A stretch of DNA of 64,000 nucleotides from Acidimicrobiia bacterium (GTDB lineage: Bacteria; Actinomycetota; Acidimicrobiia; Spongiisociales; UBA5794): contig JASJDZ010000043.1 of NCBI GenBank assembly GCA_030065575.1, forward strand, positions 2,564 to 66,563. Direction: 5' to 3'. Within the stretch, counting starts at the first letter, position 1, and each line of letters begins with the position of its first letter. Both the position numbers and the translations under genes were made by a program. The notes under the pieces were generated by a model, which saw only the letters and a program-made list of their open reading frames with translations, had not been told where the DNA came from and made no database searches. Positions 19,739-29,356 of this stretch are shown piece by piece.

Positions 19739-20440
19739 CTAGCTGAGTAGAGCCGCAGCGGGCTCATCCGCATACACGATTGTGTTCCCGTGCTGGCGCA
19801 GATACGACGCAGGCACCTCCGGGCCAATCGGCCCGGACACCGCCCGTTCCAGGATCTCGGCTTTGTGCCGACCTGAGACCAGCAGCCAGATCTCTTCCGC
19901 GGCAAGCAGCGTCCCCATCCCAAGCGTTATCCCCCAGGTTGGTCGAGCTGTTGCCCCGTAACGGGCTGCGTTCTGCTGGGTCGACGGGTCCAACTCAACA
20001 ACACGTGTTCGCGAGTCAGACCTCGAGCCCGGCTCGTTCATGCCGATATGCCCATTGCCGCCCAGCCCGACAACGGCCAGGTCGAGCCCGCCATCGGCGA
20101 TCACATCTTCAAAGCGTTCGCACTCCTCTTGCAGTGAGGCTGCGGTCACATCGAAGGTGTACAAGGCATCGGGTGGGGTAGGAAGTCGCTGCAAGAGCGC
20201 CCTATCGAGCATCTCGTCGCAGCGTCCGAGATCACCGACCGGGAGAAGGAACTCATCGAGCAGGAACACCTCTGTGCCTTCCAGAGACCCGCCAGAAGCC
20301 GTGAACTCGGCATAGACGGGCTCGGGTGTGCTCCCAGTAGCGAGACACACGCGCAACCCATTTCGCAGGGAGACGAAGCGAACGAGTCGGGCCCCGACAG
20401 CCGGGGCCCACTCGTCAGCCGCAAAGATCTCGAGTTTCAC
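19739..20440 (-). CDS. nagB: Glucosamine-6-phosphate deaminase.
   Basis: It has the NagB/Pgl signature [16 protein letters not shown] and an N-terminal LATGSTP motif. The GTG start overlaps the upstream gene's stop as GTGA. Confidence 0.8.
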
Positions 20441-21633
20441 CCGTCGGTGACGATATCGAAGATCGACCCTGTGTCCTTGTCGCTGAGGATCAGCTTCTTC
20501 CGTCCGTCCGGCAGGACCTCTTCCTTGACCACGGCGTGACCATCGTGGAACGAGTTGGTCTTGGCAATCCGCTCGGTTGCGCCCCCGCGCCACTCGACGT
20601 TGACGGGTTCCCACTGCCTGGTCTCGGCGGAGCGGTAGGCGGCGTCCATGATCGCGTTGACCACGTAACCGTCGTAGAAGGTCTCCATAGGCTCCGTGCC
20701 GTTCTCGATGGCATCGAACATATCGGTGAACATGTCGACATAGCCGAGCTCGGAGACTTCGTCGCCAACCGGGAATAGCCAGCCCTCAGTGGATTCGAGC
20801 TTCTCCGCGACGTATCCCTCTCCGCCACCGGATGAGTACATCTCATACCCGGTCCGCAGGAAGTGATTGAGCCAGATCGTGCCCTCGGTCCCGGCGACCT
20901 CGTCACGCAGGTCCATACCACCACGGAACGACCAGCTCACCTCGAATTGGCCAATCGCACCCGATTCGAAACGGATGAGCACTACGGCGTTGTCCTCCGC
21001 CTTGATGGGATGAACGAGCGTGTCGGCCCACGCCATGACATCGAGCGGCCGATTGCCCTTGCCGACGAAGTTGCGAATGATCTCAATGCAATGGCAGCCC
21101 AGGTCGACAATGGCGCCACCCCCGGCCTTGTCCTTGTCCCAGAACCATGCGCTGTGAGGCCCGGGATGAGTCTCTCGGGAGCGCACCCAGGTGACATCGC
21201 CGATGGCGCCTCCGTTGACCGCTGCTATCGCCTTGAGCGTCTTGGGTGTGTAGCACAGATCCTCTAGGTAACCGGCGAAGATCCCGGCTTGCTCGACCCG
21301 GTCGAGGATTCGCTTGGCTTCTTCGCCGGAGCGGGCCAACGGCTTCGTGCATAGGACGGGCTTGCCCGCAGCGGCGATGAGATCGATCGCTTCCTCGTGA
21401 AGGAAGTTGGGGAGAGCGACAACGACCACATCGACCGCAGGGTCGTTGATCGCGTCCTCGATACTCGTTGTGTGGCGAGGGATGCCCCATCGCTCGGCAA
21501 ATGCCTGACCACGCTCCTCGGTTCTCGAGTAGACAACCCCGACTCGATCCCGGCCGCGCTGGCCGTGGAGAGTCATCGTGTAGAAGTCTCCGATCAGCCC
21601 GGTCCCGAGCATGGCAATCGTGCGTCCTTCCAT
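20437..21633 (-). CDS. Gfo/Idh/MocA-family oxidoreductase.
   Basis: It has a Rossmann motif ([13 protein letters not shown]) and a CTKPLA (EKP-like) motif. It is the first gene of a two-gene operon with nagB. Confidence 0.85.
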
Positions 21634-21683
21634 GACTGTTCCTCCTGGTACTGGATGGACGGCGCCTCACGACGTGATGGCGA

Positions 21684-21695
21684 TTGTATATACAA
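21684..21695. promoter_or_regulatory. Perfect palindrome TTGTATATACAA upstream of the Gfo-nagB operon.
   Basis: It is a 12-bp perfect palindrome with the same TTGT...ACAA arms as the 4710 site, about 50 nt upstream of the start at 21633. Confidence 0.4.
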
Positions 21696-21702
21696 GTTAG
21701 CG

Positions 21703-21735
21703 GAAAGCCCGGCTGCTGCGTAATGCTGCAGCCGG
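21703..21735 (-). terminator. Possible intrinsic terminator downstream of the M50 protease gene.
   Basis: It is a GC-rich hairpin (CCCGGCTGC...GCAGCCGGG, 9-bp stem) followed on the minus strand by CUUUCC. The U-tract is weak. Confidence 0.3.
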
Positions 21736-21758
21736 GTCGATCAGCGTGACGTCGAGAG

Positions 21759-22883
21759 CTAGGCCGCCAGTTGCGGCTCATCCGTCAAGCGACGCAGAGC
21801 AAGCGCGCGGTCGATTTCGAGTGCGGTAACCAGACCGACGGCCTGTCCGCCATCCATGACGACGATCGGCTTGCCATGATGGCGGAGGATTGCTGCTGCC
21901 GGATTGTCGATTTCCAGCATGACCGGCTTCGGCAGCGGGAGATCCCGCAGGCGAGCCGGGACGGCATTGCGCTGTCCGGCGCCGGCGGCGACTCGGACCA
22001 ACTCGCGACGAGAGGTCACTGCGGTCACGTTGCCGCCGAAGTCGACCGCGACGATGCGGTCGTCAGTGCGTCCCTGCTCGATCACGATGTCACGAACTTC
22101 CGCCCAGTCACCCATCGTGGCGGGCAGGGGAGACATGATCTCGGCCAGGCTCAGGTTATTGAGGGCACCCTGGACTCGGCCCATCCTGGCCTCCTGGCCG
22201 GCTGCCGCATAGAGGAACCAACCGATTCCAGCAGTCCAGAGCCCGCCGGGGTTTCCGGCCAGAAACTCAACAAGGCCGAACACGGCAACCATGATTCCAA
22301 GCCCGCGACCGGCGCGAGCTGCTCCAACCGTGGCACGGGAGCGGTCGCCGTGACGCTTCCATAGCCAGGCGTGCAGCAGACGACCTCCGTCGAGAGGTGC
22401 GCCGGGCAGCAGGTTGAAGACAGCGAGAATGGCATTGAGCCCTGCCAGCCAGACCAGCACCGCAGTGAGCAGCGTTGGTGCTGAGATCACGGCGGTGATC
22501 CCAGCCGTGGCTGCGGCCAGCAGCGCAAGGGCAAGGCTGGACGCCGGGCCAACGCCGGCGATCAGAGCTTCGGCACGCGGAGTAGGAGCCTCATCCTCGA
22601 GGTGGGCGACGCCGCCGAGCAACCAGAGTGTTAGCGAGGAGACCTGAATGTCGTACCGCTGGGCAACAACGGCATGGGCCGCCTCGTGGACGAAGATGGA
22701 GAGCAGCAGGGACGCTCCGGCAAGGAAACCGGCGACCAGGTAGGCCCCGTCGCTCCATCCGGGTGCGAGCTGCGGCAAGACGCCATTCGCCACGAGTAGG
22801 CCGAGGACGGCGGCAAGCGCTACGGCACCCCAGTGCAGCTTGACCGGGATTCCGCGGAATGATCCAATCGTACGTGCGTTCAT
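21759..22883 (-). CDS. Site-2 protease family (peptidase M50) with a C-terminal CBS pair.
   Basis: It has the HEAAH zinc motif inside a TM helix, multiple TM segments and a C-terminal CBS-like region. Confidence 0.8.
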   Translation of the reverse strand: MNARTIGSFRGIPVKLHWGAVALAAVLGLLVANGVLPQLAPGWSDGAYLVAGFLAGASLLLSIFVHEAAHAVVAQRYDIQVSSLTLWLLGGVAHLEDEAPTPRAEALIAGVGPASSLALALLAAATAGITAVISAPTLLTAVLVWLAGLNAILAVFNLLPGAPLDGGRLLHAWLWKRHGDRSRATVGAARAGRGLGIMVAVFGLVEFLAGNPGGLWTAGIGWFLYAAAGQEARMGRVQGALNNLSLAEIMSPLPATMGDWAEVRDIVIEQGRTDDRIVAVDFGGNVTAVTSRRELVRVAAGAGQRNAVPARLRDLPLPKPVMLEIDNPAAAILRHHGKPIVVMDGGQAVGLVTALEIDRALALRRLTDEPQLAA

Positions 22884-23075
22884 GGTTCACCTCCAGAAGG
22901 CGATCCGACTCATTAGAGAGGTTCGTTGCCGGAAGTCAGGACGGATGCTTCCAACCGGTTATGCGCATACGCGCATGTTTCCTGTCTAGTCCCGTTCCGC
23001 AAGTCCATCCGTCCCTTGTCGATCGAGCCTTGGGGATAGATGATGGAGGCAGGTCCCAACACCAGGGAGTGCCGA

Positions 23076-23642
23076 ATGATCGAACTGCGGATTCACGGCC
23101 GCGGAGGACAAGGCGCCGTCGTTGCTTCCAAGACACTGGCGCAGGCAGCGTTTCTGGCAGGGAGATACGTTCAGAGTTACCCGGACTACGGGGTAGAACG
23201 TCGCGGCGCGCCCGTTGTGGCGTTCGCCCGCATCGCCGAGCCCGGTGATGATGTGTTCGTTCGCCAGGACATCAAGGAACCACACCATCTGCTGGTGCTC
23301 GACCCGACCTTGTTGGATTCGGGCAATCCCATCGCCGGACTGCGCGACGGAGGCTGGGTGGTGGTCAACAGCCCTGATCCACCCCAGTCTCTGGGGATCG
23401 TCACACGGTTCCGCGTTGCCACAGTGGATGCGACCCGCATCGCGATGAACCACGGCCTCGGCACTGCCGCTCAGCCCGTTGTCAATACCGCCATTCTCGG
23501 CGCTTTCGTGCGGGTTACGGAGATAGTCGAGATGGACGACTTGCTGCGAGCGATCACCTACGAGGTCCCCACAATGGAGGAGGAGAACTGCCAGGCGGCT
23601 CGTGACGCCTTCGATTCGGTGCGTACGGAGGTGGCGGTATGA
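23076..23642 (+). CDS. porG: 2-oxoacid:ferredoxin oxidoreductase gamma subunit.
   Basis: It has the PorG fold (IELRIHGRGGQGAVVASKTLAQAA). The ATG at 23076 follows a GGGAG RBS, and the stop overlaps the next ATG as ATGA. Confidence 0.85.
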   Translation: MIELRIHGRGGQGAVVASKTLAQAAFLAGRYVQSYPDYGVERRGAPVVAFARIAEPGDDVFVRQDIKEPHHLLVLDPTLLDSGNPIAGLRDGGWVVVNSPDPPQSLGIVTRFRVATVDATRIAMNHGLGTAAQPVVNTAILGAFVRVTEIVEMDDLLRAITYEVPTMEEENCQAARDAFDSVRTEVAV

Positions 23643-25297
23643 ATGGCCTCGGGCATGTTGATGACTACCCGGAGATTCCGGTTTCGCTGGCTCCGACCAG
23701 CGCCCTGCTCAAGACGGGCGCGTGGCGAAGCGTCCGCCCCGTGGTCGCCAAGCGCACCGCACCATGCACTGCGGGGTGCCCGGCCGCTATCGATATCCCG
23801 GCCTACTTCGACGAAATCCGACGGGGGGAACTGGAATCCGCTCTCGATCGGTTCCTGCGCCGCAATCCGTTTCCTCGCATAACGGGACGGGTGTGCCCCC
23901 ATTTCTGCGAACAGGGATGCAGCCTGGCGGTAGCCGCCGACGAGGAACCCGTGTCAATCAGATCGATCGAGCGCTGGTTGGGGGACGAAACTGCCGATCG
24001 GCCCCATGTTGTCGAAGCGGAACCAACCAGCAAGCGAATCGCGATCGTTGGTGGCGGGCCGGCGGGAATGGCCGCATCCTTCTACCTGAGGCGATCCGGT
24101 CATGAGGTGACGTTGTTTGAGCGCCGTGACCACGCAGGTGGCGTCATGCGATACGGGATCCCGGAGTACCGGCTGCCACAGGAGATCGTTGATCACGAGG
24201 TCGATCGCCTAGCTGAGATGGGTGTTGAGATCCGCACCGGCGTCTCATTGGGCGACGACTTCAGCCTCGAGGACCTCGAAGCCGACTACGCCGCCGTCTT
24301 CGTTGCCACGGGGGCAGGTAAGCAGAGGCGCAGCGATATCAAAGGGGAGAGCCTCCTCGAGCCCGGACTGCCCTTCCTGGAAGCCGCAAAGCGCGGCGAA
24401 GGCACCGCACTCGGGGATCGCTGCGCAGTTATTGGTGCCGGCAACACGGCTATGGACGTTGCGCGCACTCTTCGCCGTCTTGGCGCCCACGTCACGGTCA
24501 TCTACCGGAGAACCAAGGACGAGATGACGGCGATCGAAGAAGAGTACGAGCGAGCACTGGCCGACCGGGTCAAGTTCGAATGGCTGATGTCGCCGCGCGA
24601 GGTGAAGAAGGCTCGCAACGAATTGCGCCTCATCCTCGATCACATGAGGCTCGGTGAGCCGGATGAGTCCGGCCGGCCCCACCCCGAGCCGACGGGGGTG
24701 AGTTCCGAACTTCGGTTCGACAGCATCTTTGCGGCTGTCGGGGAGATCGCAGAGATCGGGACATTCCCCGAGCGGATGCGCGATGACCAGGGTTGGGTGG
24801 ATGTCGGTGCCGACGGGTCGACCCGAGATCCGAAAGTGTTTGCCGGAGGTGATCTCGCCACCGGGCCGGCGACCGTGGTGCAAGCTATCGCGGCGGGTCG
24901 CGCTGCAGCGCAGGCAATAGATGATCAACTTGGTTTCTCCCACCTGTGGCCGGAAGAGGAACCGGTAGACACAGTGAAGCCGGCCGAGGTCAACCCCACC
25001 TACATGCCTCACCACGACCGGGCCGACGATCATGAAGTTGAGGTAGTCACGCAGTTCGCCGAGGAAACGGCGACTCTGAGCGATGCAGAAGCAGCTGAGG
25101 AGACGGATCGCTGTCTGTCCTGCGGGTACTGCAACAACTGCGGTACTTGCTTCGTCTTCTGCCCCGACGCCGCAATCATCTGGGAGGACGGACCGCGAAT
25201 CGACCATGAGTTCTGCAAAGGATGTGGCATCTGCGTTGTCGAGTGCCCGGGACACGCAATGGTGCTGGTGAACGAGAGGGAGGTGAGCAATGTCTGA
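23639..25297 (+). CDS. Fusion protein of a GltD-like NAD(P)H:flavin oxidoreductase and a PorD-like 2x[4Fe-4S] ferredoxin.
   Basis: The N-terminus has a GltD-type Cys-rich domain (CTAGCP...GRVCPHFCEQGC) and an FAD/NAD(P) Rossmann motif (IAIVGGGPAGMAAS, VIGAGNTAMD). The C-terminus has two CxxCxxCxxxCP motifs (CLSCGYCNNCGTCFVFCP, CKGCGICVVECP). It occupies the position porD normally holds, between porG and porA. Confidence 0.8.
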   Translation: MNGLGHVDDYPEIPVSLAPTSALLKTGAWRSVRPVVAKRTAPCTAGCPAAIDIPAYFDEIRRGELESALDRFLRRNPFPRITGRVCPHFCEQGCSLAVAADEEPVSIRSIERWLGDETADRPHVVEAEPTSKRIAIVGGGPAGMAASFYLRRSGHEVTLFERRDHAGGVMRYGIPEYRLPQEIVDHEVDRLAEMGVEIRTGVSLGDDFSLEDLEADYAAVFVATGAGKQRRSDIKGESLLEPGLPFLEAAKRGEGTALGDRCAVIGAGNTAMDVARTLRRLGAHVTVIYRRTKDEMTAIEEEYERALADRVKFEWLMSPREVKKARNELRLILDHMRLGEPDESGRPHPEPTGVSSELRFDSIFAAVGEIAEIGTFPERMRDDQGWVDVGADGSTRDPKVFAGGDLATGPATVVQAIAAGRAAAQAIDDQLGFSHLWPEEEPVDTVKPAEVNPTYMPHHDRADDHEVEVVTQFAEETATLSDAEAAEETDRCLSCGYCNNCGTCFVFCPDAAIIWEDGPRIDHEFCKGCGICVVECPGHAMVLVNEREVSNV

Positions 25298-26513
25298 GCG
25301 CCTTCTTCTCACCGGCAATCACGCAGCTGCCTACGGTGCGATGCTGGCGAGGGCCGAGGTCATCTCGGCCTATCCGATCACGCCCCAAACCATGATCGTC
25401 GAGCTTCTGTCCGAGATGACGGCCTCGGGACGGCTCCCGGCCAAGTTCATCACCGTCGAGTCCGAGCACTCGGCCATGGCGGCATGCGTCGGGGCCTCCG
25501 CCGCCGGCGCCCGCACCTACACGGCGACGAGCGGGCAAGGCCTCGCGCTCATGCACGAAATGCTGCATTGGGCGGTTGGAGCCCGCCTGCCGATTGTCCT
25601 GACGAACGTGAGCCGGGCAATGGCACCCGGTTGGTCGATCTGGAGCGACCAGAGCGACATCCTGTCGCAACGAGACGTCGGCTGGATGATGCTTTTCGCA
25701 GAAAGCGTGCAAGAGGCACAGGACTTCATCCTCTGGACCTATCGAGTCGCCGAGCAGGTCTTCCTACCCGGCATGGTGGGCATGGATGCGTTCATCCTCT
25801 CTCATACGGCCGAACCCCTGATCGTGCACGATCAGGAGGCGGTCGATGCGTACCTGCCGAAGTTCGATCCCCTATACGACCTCGATCCAGCCGAGCCCCG
25901 TGCTTATGGGGGACTGGTCAACCGGGATCACTACTTCGAGATGCGCTACAAGATCTACGAGAACATGGATAGGGCGGGCCAACTCCTCGTCGAGGCGGGG
26001 GAAGAATTCGGCGAGGTCTTGGGACACCGCTACACGCCGCTCGAGGGTTTCATGCTCGATGACGCCGACTATGTGATCGTCTCGGCGGGCGCGATGACGT
26101 CCAACATCCGGCAGGCTGTTCGCGATCTGCGGGAGGAAGGGATGAAGGTAGGCCTGCTGCGGGTCATCGCATTCCGGCCCTTCCCGGTCGACGAAGTGCG
26201 CCGGATACTGACCGGGCGAACCAAAGTTGCGGTGCTCGATCGCAACATGAGCGCCGGGCACTCGGGCATCTTTGCGCAGGAGATCCGCTCCGCAATGCTG
26301 GGCCAACCCGACGCGCCACCCATCTACGGCTACGTGGTCGGCATCGGTGGCCGGGACGTACGGGTCGAAACTGGCCATCAGGTTCTCCACGACCTGTTGA
26401 CGCGAGAGGAACCTGAGCTGGCGCTCTTTGTCGGGCTGAAAGGCCTGCCCATCGGCCCGGTACGCAAGGACTTCGAGATCAAGCCGCTGGCGCCGCTGGA
26501 GGTGATGCAATGA
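25290..26513 (+). CDS. porA: 2-oxoacid:ferredoxin oxidoreductase alpha subunit.
   Basis: It has the PorA N-terminal pyrimidine-binding fold (GNHAAAYGAMLARAEVISAYPITPQT...ESEHSA). Its start overlaps the upstream stop. Confidence 0.9.
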   Translation: MSERLLLTGNHAAAYGAMLARAEVISAYPITPQTMIVELLSEMTASGRLPAKFITVESEHSAMAACVGASAAGARTYTATSGQGLALMHEMLHWAVGARLPIVLTNVSRAMAPGWSIWSDQSDILSQRDVGWMMLFAESVQEAQDFILWTYRVAEQVFLPGMVGMDAFILSHTAEPLIVHDQEAVDAYLPKFDPLYDLDPAEPRAYGGLVNRDHYFEMRYKIYENMDRAGQLLVEAGEEFGEVLGHRYTPLEGFMLDDADYVIVSAGAMTSNIRQAVRDLREEGMKVGLLRVIAFRPFPVDEVRRILTGRTKVAVLDRNMSAGHSGIFAQEIRSAMLGQPDAPPIYGYVVGIGGRDVRVETGHQVLHDLLTREEPELALFVGLKGLPIGPVRKDFEIKPLAPLEVMQ

Positions 26514-27418
26514 GGTGGGTAGTTCCCGAAGCGGAGCACATGTCCGAAGGCACGCTGGGCTGTCAAGGCTGCGGTGGGGCACTGTCGATGCGTCTGGTAC
26601 TCAAAGAGGTCGGCCGTGACGCAGTCGGAGTGATCCCCGCCTGCTGTTGGTCGATCATCGATGGCCCGTGGCCGACGCATGCACTCGACATTCCCGTGTT
26701 GCATACCGCGTTCGAAACCGCCGCAGTGGTGGCAACCGGAGTGAAGGCGGCCAAGACCATCCAGGGCAAGGATACGACGGTTATCGCCTGGGCCGGTGAC
26801 GGTGGTACTTTCGACATTGGCCTGCAGGCGCTCTCGGGGGCGGCGGAGCGAAACGAGGACATCCTGTTCGTTTGCTACGACAACGAGGCGTACATGAACA
26901 CCGGGATCCAACGTTCCTCGTCCACGCCCACTGGCACATGGACAACGACCACCCCGGACCAGCGACCCGAGGCGCGGCCGAAGAAGGACATCATGGGCAT
27001 CATCGCCGCCCATCGGATTCCCTACGCAGCCACGGCAACCGCGGCCTATCCGGAGGATCTGGAACGCAAGGTGAAGACGGCAGTCGAGACCAAGGGAGGA
27101 ATGCGGTTCCTGCACCTGCTCTCGGTTTGCCCTCCGGGATGGAAGATGGAGGCGCACCAGGCGATCGAGGTGATGCGGCGGGCGGTACGCAGCAAGGTGT
27201 TCCCCCTCTACGAGGTCCGCAACGGCCGGGAGTACACGATCACGCATTGGCCTGATGAGTTGCCGGTAGAGGAGTACTTCTCGATGCAGGGCCGGTTCAA
27301 GACGCTGCTCAGCGATCCGGAGATGCTCGAGGTAGTGCGGGGCAACGTTGAAGAGAGGTGGCAGATCCTGCTCGGACGCCATCAACGTTCCCACCCGGAG
27401 ATGGCGCCCACGAACTAG
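26510..27418 (+). CDS. porB: 2-oxoacid:ferredoxin oxidoreductase beta subunit (TPP-binding).
   Basis: It has a Cys cluster (CQGCGG, CCW) and a TPP GDGG motif (WAGDGGTFDIG). It is coupled to porA by ATGA. Confidence 0.9.
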   Translation: MRWVVPEAEHMSEGTLGCQGCGGALSMRLVLKEVGRDAVGVIPACCWSIIDGPWPTHALDIPVLHTAFETAAVVATGVKAAKTIQGKDTTVIAWAGDGGTFDIGLQALSGAAERNEDILFVCYDNEAYMNTGIQRSSSTPTGTWTTTTPDQRPEARPKKDIMGIIAAHRIPYAATATAAYPEDLERKVKTAVETKGGMRFLHLLSVCPPGWKMEAHQAIEVMRRAVRSKVFPLYEVRNGREYTITHWPDELPVEEYFSMQGRFKTLLSDPEMLEVVRGNVEERWQILLGRHQRSHPEMAPTN

Positions 27419-27496: not shown

Positions 27497-29356
27497 ATGA
27501 GGGGTCCGGCATTGAGGATCGCCTCGGTCATCACTGTTCTCAGCGCCGCGCTGTTCACCGGGGCGGCTCAGGTCGCTGCGGCCGAGACAGGAACGGTCTA
27601 CCCGCTCGTCTTCCCCGTAGGTGGTGCGAACAGTTGGACCGACACCTACGGAGCGCCTCGCTCCGAAGGGCGCACTCACCAGGGCATTGACATCTTCGCC
27701 GCAAAGGGCACGCCGGTCCTTGCCGCAGCGGACGGGCGAGTATCCCGGATCGCGGAGGGAAACAGAGCCGGGCGCTTCATCGTCATAAGCCACGACGATG
27801 GATGGAGCACTTACTACCTCCACCTGGACAACGACACGCCCGGTACCGATGACGGCCTCGGTGGCGCTCCGGCGCCGGGCATTCAGGTTGGGACGAGGGT
27901 CGCGGCTGGAGATGTGATCGACTTCGTGGGGGACAGCGGCAACGCCGAAGGGACGTCGCCACACCTGCATTTCGAGCTACATCGCCCCGACGGCCGTCCG
28001 GTCAATCCGACTCCTCATCTCAATGCCGCCGAATCGGGCAGTGCTCCCGAATCGCTTTCGGGCCCGGACCGTGTGCTGTATCGGGCCGCTGGGGTCGAAC
28101 TCGTCGGGAGCCTCGATCCGGGCGGAGGCTTTGCCGCCGGACTGGCCGTCCACAACGACATTGCGTACGTGGGTACCTGGGGAAGGCATGATGCCTGTCC
28201 GAACTCCGGGGTGCGGGTCATCGATGTGTCGGATCCGACTGAGCCTGTGGCAATAGGGGTGATCGCCGGCAGCGACGAATACCCCGGGACAAGTACGGAC
28301 GGGGTCTGGGCCGGCCGGGTCGAGACGGATAGTTTCGTCGGGGCCCTCGCGGTGGTCAGCGTCCGCCTGTGTGACACGAGTGAGCGCAATAGGAAGACCG
28401 ACGCGTTTCGGGGTTTGGCCATTTACGACGTCAACGAACCAGCAGCGCCACGCCTGCTCAGCGAGTACCACTCCGGGGCCCAAACTCAGGGGGCCAACGA
28501 CGTCAGCTTGGCGGTTCGCCCCGACGGCAGGGCCGTGCTCAGCGCCACCGTCATGCAGTCCTACTTGCACACCGGAGGGCGAGCCGGCGACTGGCGGCTC
28601 GTAGATGTGTCTGACCCCGAACACCCCCGCCAAGTCGCAGAGTGGGACTATCGCAGCTACCTGCCGGCCGGCGATCGAGCTCGCAGCAATCGTGAACTGC
28701 ATGTGCATACCTCGCTTCTGTCCGCCTCCGGAGAGCGGGTCTGGCTTGGGGTCTGGGATGCTGGGCTCATTCAGCTCGACCTGCGCAATCCCGAGGCGCC
28801 GAAGTTCATCTCGTCGGTTCCCGTGGGCGAAGGGCATGGAGGAAATGCGCACGGCGTCGCCTTCGACCCTGCCTCGGGTCTCCTGATCCGCAATGATGAG
28901 AACCTCGAGTGGCTGACTGAAGACGGTGAGATTCAGCCGTGGGGGGGTCAAACGTTCTACGACGCATCCGACCCTGCAGACGTCGAGTTGATTGGCTCAT
29001 TCACCACAGCCAACACCGATCTGACTGCGGGTGTGCCTGCTGCGCCGGGGTACTTCACCGCGCACGAGGCTGTGCTCGTGAACAACATCGAGTACGTCTC
29101 CTGGTACTCCGATGGCATTCGCATCGTGGATCTGTCAGACGCCGGTGCCCCCACCGAGATAGGGCATTTTGTGCCTCCGCCGACTCCTGACCCTCAGGCC
29201 CACTTCCTCGGCCAGGGTCGCGGCTCCAGCTTTGCCATGGTGTGGGGCGTCGTCGTCACCAATGGCTACATCTATCTGACCGACATGCACAGTGGGCTTT
29301 GGATCGTCCGTCACGCCGGCCCGGAATCCGCGCCTCCTCTCACCGGGCGTCGGTGA
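27497..29356 (+). CDS. Secreted M23 (LytM-type) metallopeptidase fused to an LVIVD-repeat beta-propeller.
   Basis: It has a signal peptide (ITVLSAALFTGAAQVAAA) and M23 motifs (HQGIDIFA...HLHFE). It then has at least five repeats of the type V(R/L)(V/I)(I/V)D(V/L)SDP(T/E)xP. Confidence 0.75.
   Translation: MRGPALRIASVITVLSAALFTGAAQVAAAETGTVYPLVFPVGGANSWTDTYGAPRSEGRTHQGIDIFAAKGTPVLAAADGRVSRIAEGNRAGRFIVISHDDGWSTYYLHLDNDTPGTDDGLGGAPAPGIQVGTRVAAGDVIDFVGDSGNAEGTSPHLHFELHRPDGRPVNPTPHLNAAESGSAPESLSGPDRVLYRAAGVELVGSLDPGGGFAAGLAVHNDIAYVGTWGRHDACPNSGVRVIDVSDPTEPVAIGVIAGSDEYPGTSTDGVWAGRVETDSFVGALAVVSVRLCDTSERNRKTDAFRGLAIYDVNEPAAPRLLSEYHSGAQTQGANDVSLAVRPDGRAVLSATVMQSYLHTGGRAGDWRLVDVSDPEHPRQVAEWDYRSYLPAGDRARSNRELHVHTSLLSASGERVWLGVWDAGLIQLDLRNPEAPKFISSVPVGEGHGGNAHGVAFDPASGLLIRNDENLEWLTEDGEIQPWGGQTFYDASDPADVELIGSFTTANTDLTAGVPAAPGYFTAHEAVLVNNIEYVSWYSDGIRIVDLSDAGAPTEIGHFVPPPTPDPQAHFLGQGRGSSFAMVWGVVVTNGYIYLTDMHSGLWIVRHAGPESAPPLTGRR

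Follow-up and report, generated by a model that had tools for sequence, protein, structure and literature searches.

A PorD subunit with an inserted GltD/NfnB-like flavoprotein cassette in a predicted 2-oxoacid:NADP+ oxidoreductase operon of an Acidimicrobiia bacterium

The 64,000-nucleotide stretch of an Acidimicrobiia bacterium analysed here (contig JASJDZ010000043.1 of assembly GCA_030065575.1; hereafter the window) contains four plus-strand open reading frames (ORFs) spanning 23076-27418 that encode, in this order, a PorG, a 552-aa hybrid protein, a PorA and a PorB of the 2-oxoacid:ferredoxin oxidoreductase (OFOR) class. The hybrid is predicted to be a PorD subunit carrying an inserted flavoprotein cassette of the GltD/NfnB type, with four [4Fe-4S] clusters together with one FAD as its predicted cofactors. 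We consider it probable (roughly 0.65) that the four genes specify a self-contained 2-oxoacid:NADP+ oxidoreductase that would work without ferredoxin and form acyl-CoA; complex formation, cluster occupancy, the direction of electron flow, the use of NADP+ over NAD+ and the 2-oxoacid substrate are the parts of this proposal that we infer. The ORF coordinates confirmed the gene order, and the overlap at every junction, given in a preliminary description of this DNA. The junctions read GTATGAATG (porG/hybrid), ATGTCTGA (hybrid/porA) and CAATGAGG (porA/porB), and the resulting overlaps of 4, 8 and 4 nt suggest translational coupling. The genes, and the segments of the hybrid, are as follows.

23076..23642, plus strand: porG, OFOR gamma subunit, 188 aa (Pfam POR, 116.5 bits; TIGR02175 PorC_KorC)
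23639..25297, plus strand: hybrid delta subunit, 552 aa, predicted PorD with an inserted GltD/NfnB-like NADP(H) flavoprotein cassette
23639..23755, plus strand: PorD N-terminal arm, aa 1-39, with invariant P11, P14, S16, T26-G27-x-W29-R30 and P34, all before the first Cys
23756..23995, plus strand: Fer4_20-type cluster domain lacking its first CxxC, aa 40-119 (Fer4_20 profile positions 29-109 only)
24035..24928, plus strand: FAD and NAD(P) Rossmann domains, aa 133-430 (GGGPAG 138-143, GAGNTA 266-271, YRR 289-291)
25064..25126, plus strand: putative permuted first helix and CxxC, aa 476-496 (...EETDRCLSCG; C492 and C495)
25127..25297 including the stop, plus strand: PorD dicluster core, aa 497-552 (C498/C501/C504/C508 and C526/C529/C532/C536)
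25290..26513, plus strand: porA, OFOR alpha subunit, 407 aa (Pfam POR_N, 246 bits; PFOR_II, 103 bits)
26510..27418, plus strand: porB, OFOR beta subunit, 302 aa (Pfam TPP_enzyme_C, 79.7 bits)

The split PorD and its flavoprotein cassette

Pfam analysis of the hybrid identified Fer4_20 (aa 40-119), Pyr_redox_2 (aa 133-420, 121.3 bits) and Fer4_9 (aa 497-541). The preliminary description had placed a PorD-type ferredoxin at the C-terminus; the dicluster core was indeed found there, but the first 39 residues proved to be the PorD N-terminal arm. Judged from these profile matches, the flavoprotein sits inside PorD, between the arm and the first cluster motif, and is not joined to it head to tail. 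The arm alone matched the N-terminus of VorD/PorD (E 2.8e-5, profile 19-52). The intact hybrid scored 58.7 bits against TIGR02179 PorD_KorD (cut-off 60.05) and covered profile positions 26-77 only, while a 96-aa splice of aa 1-39 and 496-552 scored 79.9 bits and covered positions 8-77 of 78. Because the cut-off was passed only after removal of the insert, the hybrid has the PorD family feature only as a split domain. The spliced PorD also aligned to residues 10-83 of the 85-residue solved PorD 9bt4_G with an E value of 1.1e-15, compared with only 3.3e-9 for the C-terminal part of the hybrid alone.

The C-terminal ferredoxin was not closer to unrelated dicluster proteins. Apart from NF009410, the hybrid's own model, TIGR02179 was its best NCBIfam match (52.8-58.7 bits) and the next other family was FrhG (32.4 bits), giving the PorD families a lead of about 20 bits over the next unrelated one. 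In a PDB search with the C-terminal domain alone, PorD was on top, with RnfB, FwdF and the delta subunit of oxalate oxidoreductase (5c4i_B) statistically equivalent; since this search alone does not discriminate, the PorD identity is decided by the N-terminal arm and the NCBIfam scores. NF009410 (PRK12771, 'NAD(P)-binding protein') is evidently a model of the whole hybrid architecture, aligning over positions 31-565 of 566 and narrowly missed by score (493.8 bits, cut-off 516). An AlphaFold2 model of the hybrid was obtained with a pLDDT of 87 and a pTM of 0.87, the least confident part being the PorD arm, in keeping with a segment that would pack against partner subunits. NCBI holds an identical protein from an Acidimicrobiia metagenome-assembled genome (MAG) as 'FAD-dependent oxidoreductase', and many family members carry the JGI label 'GltD-like oxidoreductase / 2-oxoacid:ferredoxin oxidoreductase delta subunit'.

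The cluster domain of the cassette had been described as complete at the N-terminus. This did not hold, as the first CxxC is absent there and was found instead at C492/C495. The N-terminal cysteines of the domain are C43, C47, C86, C90 and C94, with no Cys before C43. Ligands were mapped by reference to those listed for T. maritima NfnB, namely C51, C90, C96 and E117 for the proximal cluster and C39, C42, C47 and C100 for the distal cluster (PMC7596348). In this mapping C47, C86, C90 and E111 are the counterparts of the proximal Cys3Glu cluster, and C43 and C94 make up half of the distal cluster; nothing in the N-terminal region corresponds to NfnB C39 and C42. The sequence RC492-LS-C495-G directly precedes the first PorD motif (C498-x2-C501-x2-C504-x3-C508-P). 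When aa 476-496 were moved ahead of aa 40, the Fer4_20 score rose from 70.9 to 95.4 bits (+24.5) and the match extended over profile positions 11-109. C492 and C495 would supply the missing ligands of the distal GltD-type cluster, and by this comparison the cluster domain is circularly permuted, as in StnC and the NfnA of the Bfu type.

Conservation was assessed in an alignment of 38 family members with 32-86% identity. Fifteen cysteines of the hybrid, C492 and C495 included, were invariant, as were G138, G140, G143, G266, G268, A271 and Y289-R290; E111 and R291 were each conserved in at least 90% of the sequences. The FAD/NAD(P) Rossmann pair recognised earlier was upheld by the Pyr_redox_2 match and by the integrity of both motifs. 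YRR forms the 2'-phosphate site of NfnB and of the NADP-specific DsrL-2 (PMC7596348), and because this motif is present NADP+ is probably the likelier nucleotide for the hybrid than NAD+.

The other three subunits appear to form a normal OFOR core of the pyruvate/2-ketoisovalerate type. PorG passed the cut-off of TIGR02175 PorC_KorC, the pyruvate/2-ketoisovalerate family (179.3 bits, cut-off 81.1). PorA remained below the equivalog cut-offs of both PorA_Arch (439.9 bits, cut-off 550) and VorA (400.6 bits, cut-off 646), and PorB below those of the VorB-type model NF008818 (358.3 bits, cut-off 405) and of the PorB model (325.1 bits, cut-off 405). Because no PorA, PorB, VorA or VorB equivalog cut-off was reached, the substrate is unassignable from these scores, and pyruvate and a branched-chain 2-oxoacid are both candidates. 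PorB has a thiamine pyrophosphate (TPP) motif with GDG at aa 96-98 and N at 130, and its candidate cluster cysteines are C18, C21, C45/46 and C207.

Occurrence and variants of the operon

A scan with one genome per species yielded 80 loci, 61 of which encode full-length members of the family. In all 57 loci with enough flank, porG lay immediately upstream of the hybrid gene; porA lay immediately downstream in 50 of 59 loci, and porB in 44 of 50. No stand-alone porD was found within 5 kb at any of the 61 loci, the small matches being frameshifted pieces of hybrids only, and no ferredoxin gene was found in their 5-kb flanks or in the 64-kb window, which also held no second ORF with a CxxCxxCxxxC motif and no PorD-like ORF. 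The loci came from MAGs of Acidimicrobiia, other Actinomycetota, WOR-3, Dehalococcoidia, Syntrophomonadaceae, other Bacillota, Aquificota and Thermodesulfobacteriota, and the family spans at least five phyla. The hybrid operon is a conserved and widespread subtype of OFOR. The identity of each hybrid to the query tracked the identities of PorG, PorA and PorB (rho 0.93-0.95), as would fit genes inherited together.

In an exhaustive search, 4002 of 1.84 billion cluster representatives matched at E <= 1e-30. Among the best 150 representatives, about 100 were family-like, with a match starting within the PorD arm, and 13 were longer proteins of 712-784 aa in which the match started some 200 residues in. 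An N-terminal PorG (PF01558) domain was present in all four long forms tested (P0241, P0243, P0260 and P0330). Because PorG is covalently fused to the hybrid in these relatives, the flavoprotein is read as an OFOR subunit; as predicted gamma-delta(N)-flavoprotein-delta(C) single chains, they provide strong independent evidence for this reading. The earlier view of the protein in the porD slot, as an OFOR delta subunit and GltD/NfnB-like flavoprotein in one, was likewise strengthened by the synteny and by the presence of both PorD arm and core.

Several variants of the locus were observed. At nine loci of the Aquificota/Thermodesulfobacteriota type (L047, L051, L053, L054, L059, L064, L067, L073 and L074; for example L067:3450-6503) the adjoining genes are a helix-turn-helix-cupin regulator, porG, a 148-aa ORF unmatched in Pfam, and the hybrid. 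At L073 porA and porB are found some 2 kb downstream on the other strand, and at L067 a Lon-like protease follows the hybrid. At L030, L042 and L044 the hybrid gene is broken into several frames, as are porG, porA and porB at L042, most likely by assembly frameshifts and not as pseudogenes.

By sequence reading, the permuted cassette (PCxxxCP ... RCxxC) also appears in HdrA-like hosts (L061:3576-7013 and L072:4173-7604), in a host with CCG-type Cys motifs (L071:2249-4756) and in hosts with an unfamiliar helical N-domain (L069:4662-6827, L075 and L080). The occurrence of the GltD-like cassette in such hosts suggests a reusable, insertable module.

Predicted electron path, alternatives and related systems

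In the proposed mechanism, electrons would pass from the TPP-bound substrate to the [4Fe-4S] cluster of PorB and from there to the two PorD clusters, would enter the cassette at the distal GltD-type cluster (C43, C94, C492, C495), and would continue through the proximal Cys3Glu cluster (C47, C86, C90, E111) and FAD to NADP+ at the YRR motif. Because C495 is placed two residues before the PorD ligand C498, the distal cluster of the cassette must adjoin a PorD cluster. In the structure of the D. africanus pyruvate:ferredoxin oxidoreductase (PFOR, or POR), the first three cysteines of motif 1 reportedly bind the distal, ferredoxin-facing cluster; if this holds, the cassette would be plugged in at the normal exit for electrons. 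NfnB alone is able to act as a monofunctional ferredoxin:NADP+ reductase (PMC12288451). The wiring of the TPP site to a pyridine nucleotide, already suggested in the preliminary description, gained further support from the PorG-hybrid fusions and the intact cofactor motifs. The same description had allowed NAD(P)H-driven synthesis of 2-oxoacids, which textbook potentials make thermodynamically unfavourable. With 2-oxoacid couples near -500 mV and NADP+ near -320 mV, the oxidative direction is strongly favoured, and a physiological NADPH-driven synthase direction is unlikely.

A number of points weigh against a ferredoxin-independent NADP+ oxidoreductase. Passing electrons at -500 mV to NADP+ discards energy that anaerobes usually conserve. 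The distal cluster of PorD may be accessible to free ferredoxin, and a stand-alone porD or ferredoxin gene is possible elsewhere in the genome, of which the window gives a 64-kb view. The proximity of C492/C495 to C43/C94 is drawn from homology, the correlated divergence of the subunits (rho 0.93-0.95) would be expected for any vertically co-inherited genes, and the nine Aquificota/Thermodesulfobacteriota-type loci have porG and the hybrid without adjacent porAB. Finally, a literature search, with most subscription-journal papers outside its reach, found no paper describing or assaying the hybrid, the one mention of such genes being their exclusion in the DsrL study (PMC7596348).

One alternative is an enzyme that is still a ferredoxin-dependent OFOR, in which the flavoprotein is a reversible side branch, that is, an internal ferredoxin:NADP+ reductase that balances the ferredoxin and NADPH pools or lets NADPH aid reductive carboxylation (2-oxoacid synthase) at high CO2. 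The intact dicluster core of PorD is a normal ferredoxin-docking module, OFOR reactions are reversible in principle, and the family is present in lineages with autotrophic members (Aquificota, Thermodesulfobacteriota and WOR-3). Moreover, the por genes of Acidimicrobiia have been read as carbon-fixation genes of the reversed oxidative tricarboxylic acid (roTCA) cycle (PMC11697166). We nevertheless regard a side branch as unlikely: as a reductant, NADPH (about -320 to -380 mV) falls well short of the ferredoxins used by pyruvate synthases, the cassette directly adjoins the first cluster motif of PorD and may block the usual exit site there, and the window and the 5-kb flanks of the 61 loci are devoid of ferredoxin genes. 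In PMC11697166 the presence of POR was taken as roTCA potential; because its roTCA strain of Acidimicrobiia uses a nifJ-type POR (K03737) and not the hybrid operon, that study is no test of the hybrid enzyme. In the accessible part of the same source, a KEGG table gives porA, porB and porG (K00169, K00170 and K00172) in several Acidimicrobiia genomes, and porD (K00171) is not among the entries listed in the supplement, which is consistent with a delta subunit hidden in the hybrid.

The best matches of the hybrid in both sequence and fold were StnC (8oh5_C) and the Bfu-type NfnA (9bov_A and 9n5u_A), with E values of about 1e-90 and a Foldseek TMq of 0.77; the query aligned to StnC residues 102-573. 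In StnC, the GltD-like region (aa 102-565) contains two [4Fe-4S] clusters together with a non-bifurcating FAD, which hands on electrons from NADPH along the cluster chain (PMC10482914). StnC, Bfu-type NfnA and NsoC share with the hybrid a permuted GltD-like cassette, with PCxxxCP at its start and RCxxC after the flavoprotein, that is inserted in a host Fe-S protein; their host is a NuoG/FdhF-like protein of a transhydrogenase, whereas here it would be the PorD of an OFOR. The proximal cluster has a Lys ligand in StnC and a Glu (E111) in the hybrid, and K170 of StnC appears to align with E111, judged from the NfnA alignment (IERW versus LKRF). NfnB/NfnI-L, GltD and domains I-II of DPD share the fold (TM-score normalised to the target 0.76-0.79), the FAD and NADP sites and the Cys3Glu proximal cluster, but in these canonical modules all cysteines of the distal cluster are N-terminal (C39 and C42 of NfnB), whereas in the hybrid two of them follow the flavoprotein.

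The resemblance to NfnB/NfnI-L, whose FAD bifurcates, together with the NfnB-type proximal ligand E111 in place of the Lys of StnC, would allow a bifurcating or confurcating FAD that, with the help of an additional subunit (for instance NfnA- or PyrK-like), serves two acceptors or donors. This is improbable, as only a single cluster chain leaves the FAD, no gene for an NfnA-like protein, a [2Fe-2S] protein or a second flavin is present in the operon or its conserved neighbourhood, and the nearest relatives are StnC and the Bfu-type NfnA (an NfnABC subunit), in which the module is non-bifurcating at least in the case of StnC.

The first activities described for relatives of the module were sulfur-related, SudA reportedly being a sulfide dehydrogenase. 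For NsoC, the role given is that of an NADPH-dependent sulfur oxidoreductase (PMC10482914), DsrL serves DsrAB (PMC7596348), and Acidimicrobiia are largely aerobes (PMC11697166). These observations would accord with a flavoprotein that reduces a non-pyridine acceptor (O2, polysulfide or a disulfide), or with NADPH keeping the OFOR clusters reduced as a protection against oxygen. Such roles seem no less improbable than bifurcation, as no variation was seen in the NAD(P) Rossmann motif or in Y289-R290 and R291 is retained in at least 90% of the sequences, which argues that NADP(H) is a substrate, and no genes of sulfur metabolism lie nearby.

DsrL shares with the hybrid the order of cluster domain, FAD/NAD(P) domains, linker and C-terminal two-cluster ferredoxin, and DsrL-2 also has the YRR motif for NADP (PMC7596348). 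DsrL differs in being defined by linkage to dsrAB, and homologues adjoining pyruvate/ketoisovalerate:ferredoxin oxidoreductase genes were excluded by the authors (PMC7596348). The assignment of the hybrid to DsrL was rejected, since its position inside a por operon is that very exclusion criterion. Because the DsrL study noticed por-linked genes and left them out, the hybrid family has been seen but not studied. In DsrL a Ser/Thr replaces Cys39 of NfnB and the residue at Cys42 is variable (PMC7596348); if DsrL shares the permutation, its distal cluster may be completed by the RCxxC after the flavoprotein domain. The domain order equal to that of DsrL, and the NCBI name of just 'FAD-dependent oxidoreductase', are what speak for a stand-alone NAD(P)H oxidoreductase, DsrL-like or otherwise, with the por genes simply as neighbours, a reading made very improbable by the adjacency of porG in 57 of 57 loci with overlapping ORFs, the PorD-specific arm, the covalent PorG fusions, the lack of another delta subunit in the window or within 5 kb of the relatives' loci, and the DsrL authors' own omission of por-linked homologues (PMC7596348).

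As a 2-oxoacid:NADP+ oxidoreductase with a built-in flavoprotein, the predicted enzyme can be set against known OFORs. The four-subunit PorABDG/VorABDG enzymes (9bt4_G; oxalate oxidoreductase, 5c4i) share its alpha, beta and gamma subunits, the gene order gamma-delta-alpha-beta, the PorD N-terminal arm, the two CxxCxxCxxxCP motifs, the TPP motif and the cysteines of the beta subunit. They differ in that delta is here interrupted by a cassette of about 455 aa (FAD, NADP site and two clusters) and that the predicted acceptor is NADP+, not free ferredoxin. The phenylglyoxylate:NAD+ oxidoreductase PadEFGHI of Azoarcus evansii (Hirsch et al. 1998, as cited in PMC5109826) has the same alpha/beta/gamma/delta lineage and an extra FAD protein that reduces a pyridine nucleotide. 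Pad models (NCBIfam NF045762-66) were among the matches of all four proteins, with scores far below the cut-offs (PadE 124.9/300, PadG 265.1/700, PadI 224.7/700 and PadF 57.8/150), and no model of the Pad flavoprotein was among the 25 strongest NCBIfam matches of the hybrid. Pad differs in having five separate subunits, a free delta (PadF, 78 aa), NAD+ as acceptor and an aromatic substrate; its flavoprotein is a separate subunit. KorABC of Azoarcus evansii was reportedly described by Ebenau-Jehle and co-workers in 2003 as a 2-oxoglutarate:NADP+ oxidoreductase. It too is a bacterial OFOR in which an FAD subunit provides the coupling to NADP+, but with a two-subunit core of the KorAB type, a separate flavoprotein of another family and no known insertion in PorD.

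The eukaryotic pyruvate:NADP+ oxidoreductase (PNO) of Euglena and Cryptosporidium is a single-chain PFOR with a C-terminal FMN/FAD module resembling cytochrome P450 reductase. It shares the functional logic of an OFOR covalently linked to an NADP+ reductase and differs in that the OFOR is here split into subunits, with no flavodoxin or FNR-type domains found by Pfam. The operon had earlier been compared to PNO as a bacterial analogue built from different parts, but the concept has bacterial precedents in Pad and in KorABC. NAD(P)-linked OFORs were already known; the new element would be the GltD cassette inserted in PorD, which is not known from Pad, KorABC or PNO.

If NADP+ is indeed reduced directly, porABG genes of this type are not to be read as ferredoxin-dependent pyruvate synthases, would be no marker of low-potential ferredoxin metabolism or reductive carbon fixation, and would represent a third independently evolved link between an OFOR and a pyridine nucleotide, after the extra subunits of Pad and Kor and the eukaryotic PNO fusion. 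The operon would then be a compact four-gene module for oxygen-independent production of acyl-CoA and NADPH, and it bears on the reading of por genes in metabolic reconstructions. The topology of insertion and permutation would explain the reuse of one flavoprotein cassette in PorD, NuoG-like, HdrA-like and CCG-domain hosts: because both of its ends are proposed to meet at one cluster, the cassette could be built into a loop in any Fe-S protein. A broader generalisation, to which we give slightly less than an even chance, is that the GltD-like unit in its permuted form is a portable 'NADPH plug' that turns PorD into an internal NADP+ reductase, that the resulting ferredoxin-independent 2-oxoacid:NADP+ oxidoreductases are widespread, stand in for the lipoamide-type dehydrogenase complexes of Acidimicrobiia and other lineages and are miscounted as ferredoxin-dependent POR, and that DsrL is perhaps a derivative of the same hybrid.

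Upstream region and neighbouring genes

The region upstream of porG was compared in an alignment of the window with six Acidimicrobiia loci, and the following elements were noted.

22989..23019, plus strand: conserved upstream block GTCCC...CAAGTCCATCCGTCCCTTGT, 57-87 nt 5' of the porG ATG
23064..23069, plus strand: Shine-Dalgarno-like AGGGAG, 6 nt 5' of the porG ATG and kept in related loci

An alternative porG start at the ATG at 23040 was rejected in favour of 23076, where AGGGAGTGCC..ATGATCGA is conserved in the upstream alignment; the NCBIfam models of PorG also begin at the Met of the 23076 start. Apart from the ribosome-binding site and the start, the block at 22989-23019 was the sole conserved upstream element, with a consensus of about AAATGTCCATCCGGCCTCTACC, and it is possibly a promoter or operator. 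No Rfam family matched the leader upstream of porG, this block included. A scan for promoters and terminators found no sigma-70-like site and nothing exceeding shuffled expectation. The GC content of the window is 61-65%. An imperfect palindrome followed by a T-rich run (TATGCGCATACGCGCATG, 22960-22977), terminator-like and located in the divergent intergenic region, was set aside, having no conservation in related loci.

The neighbouring genes are functionally unrelated to the por operon and give no clue to its substrate. Upstream, on the opposite strand (19739-22883), lie genes for an M50 peptidase, a GFO/IDH/MocA oxidoreductase and a glucosamine-6-P isomerase-like protein. The downstream side (27497-29356) encodes an M23 peptidase with LVIVD repeats, and further neighbours encode a DUF3054 protein, an EEP nuclease and a DUF6941 protein.

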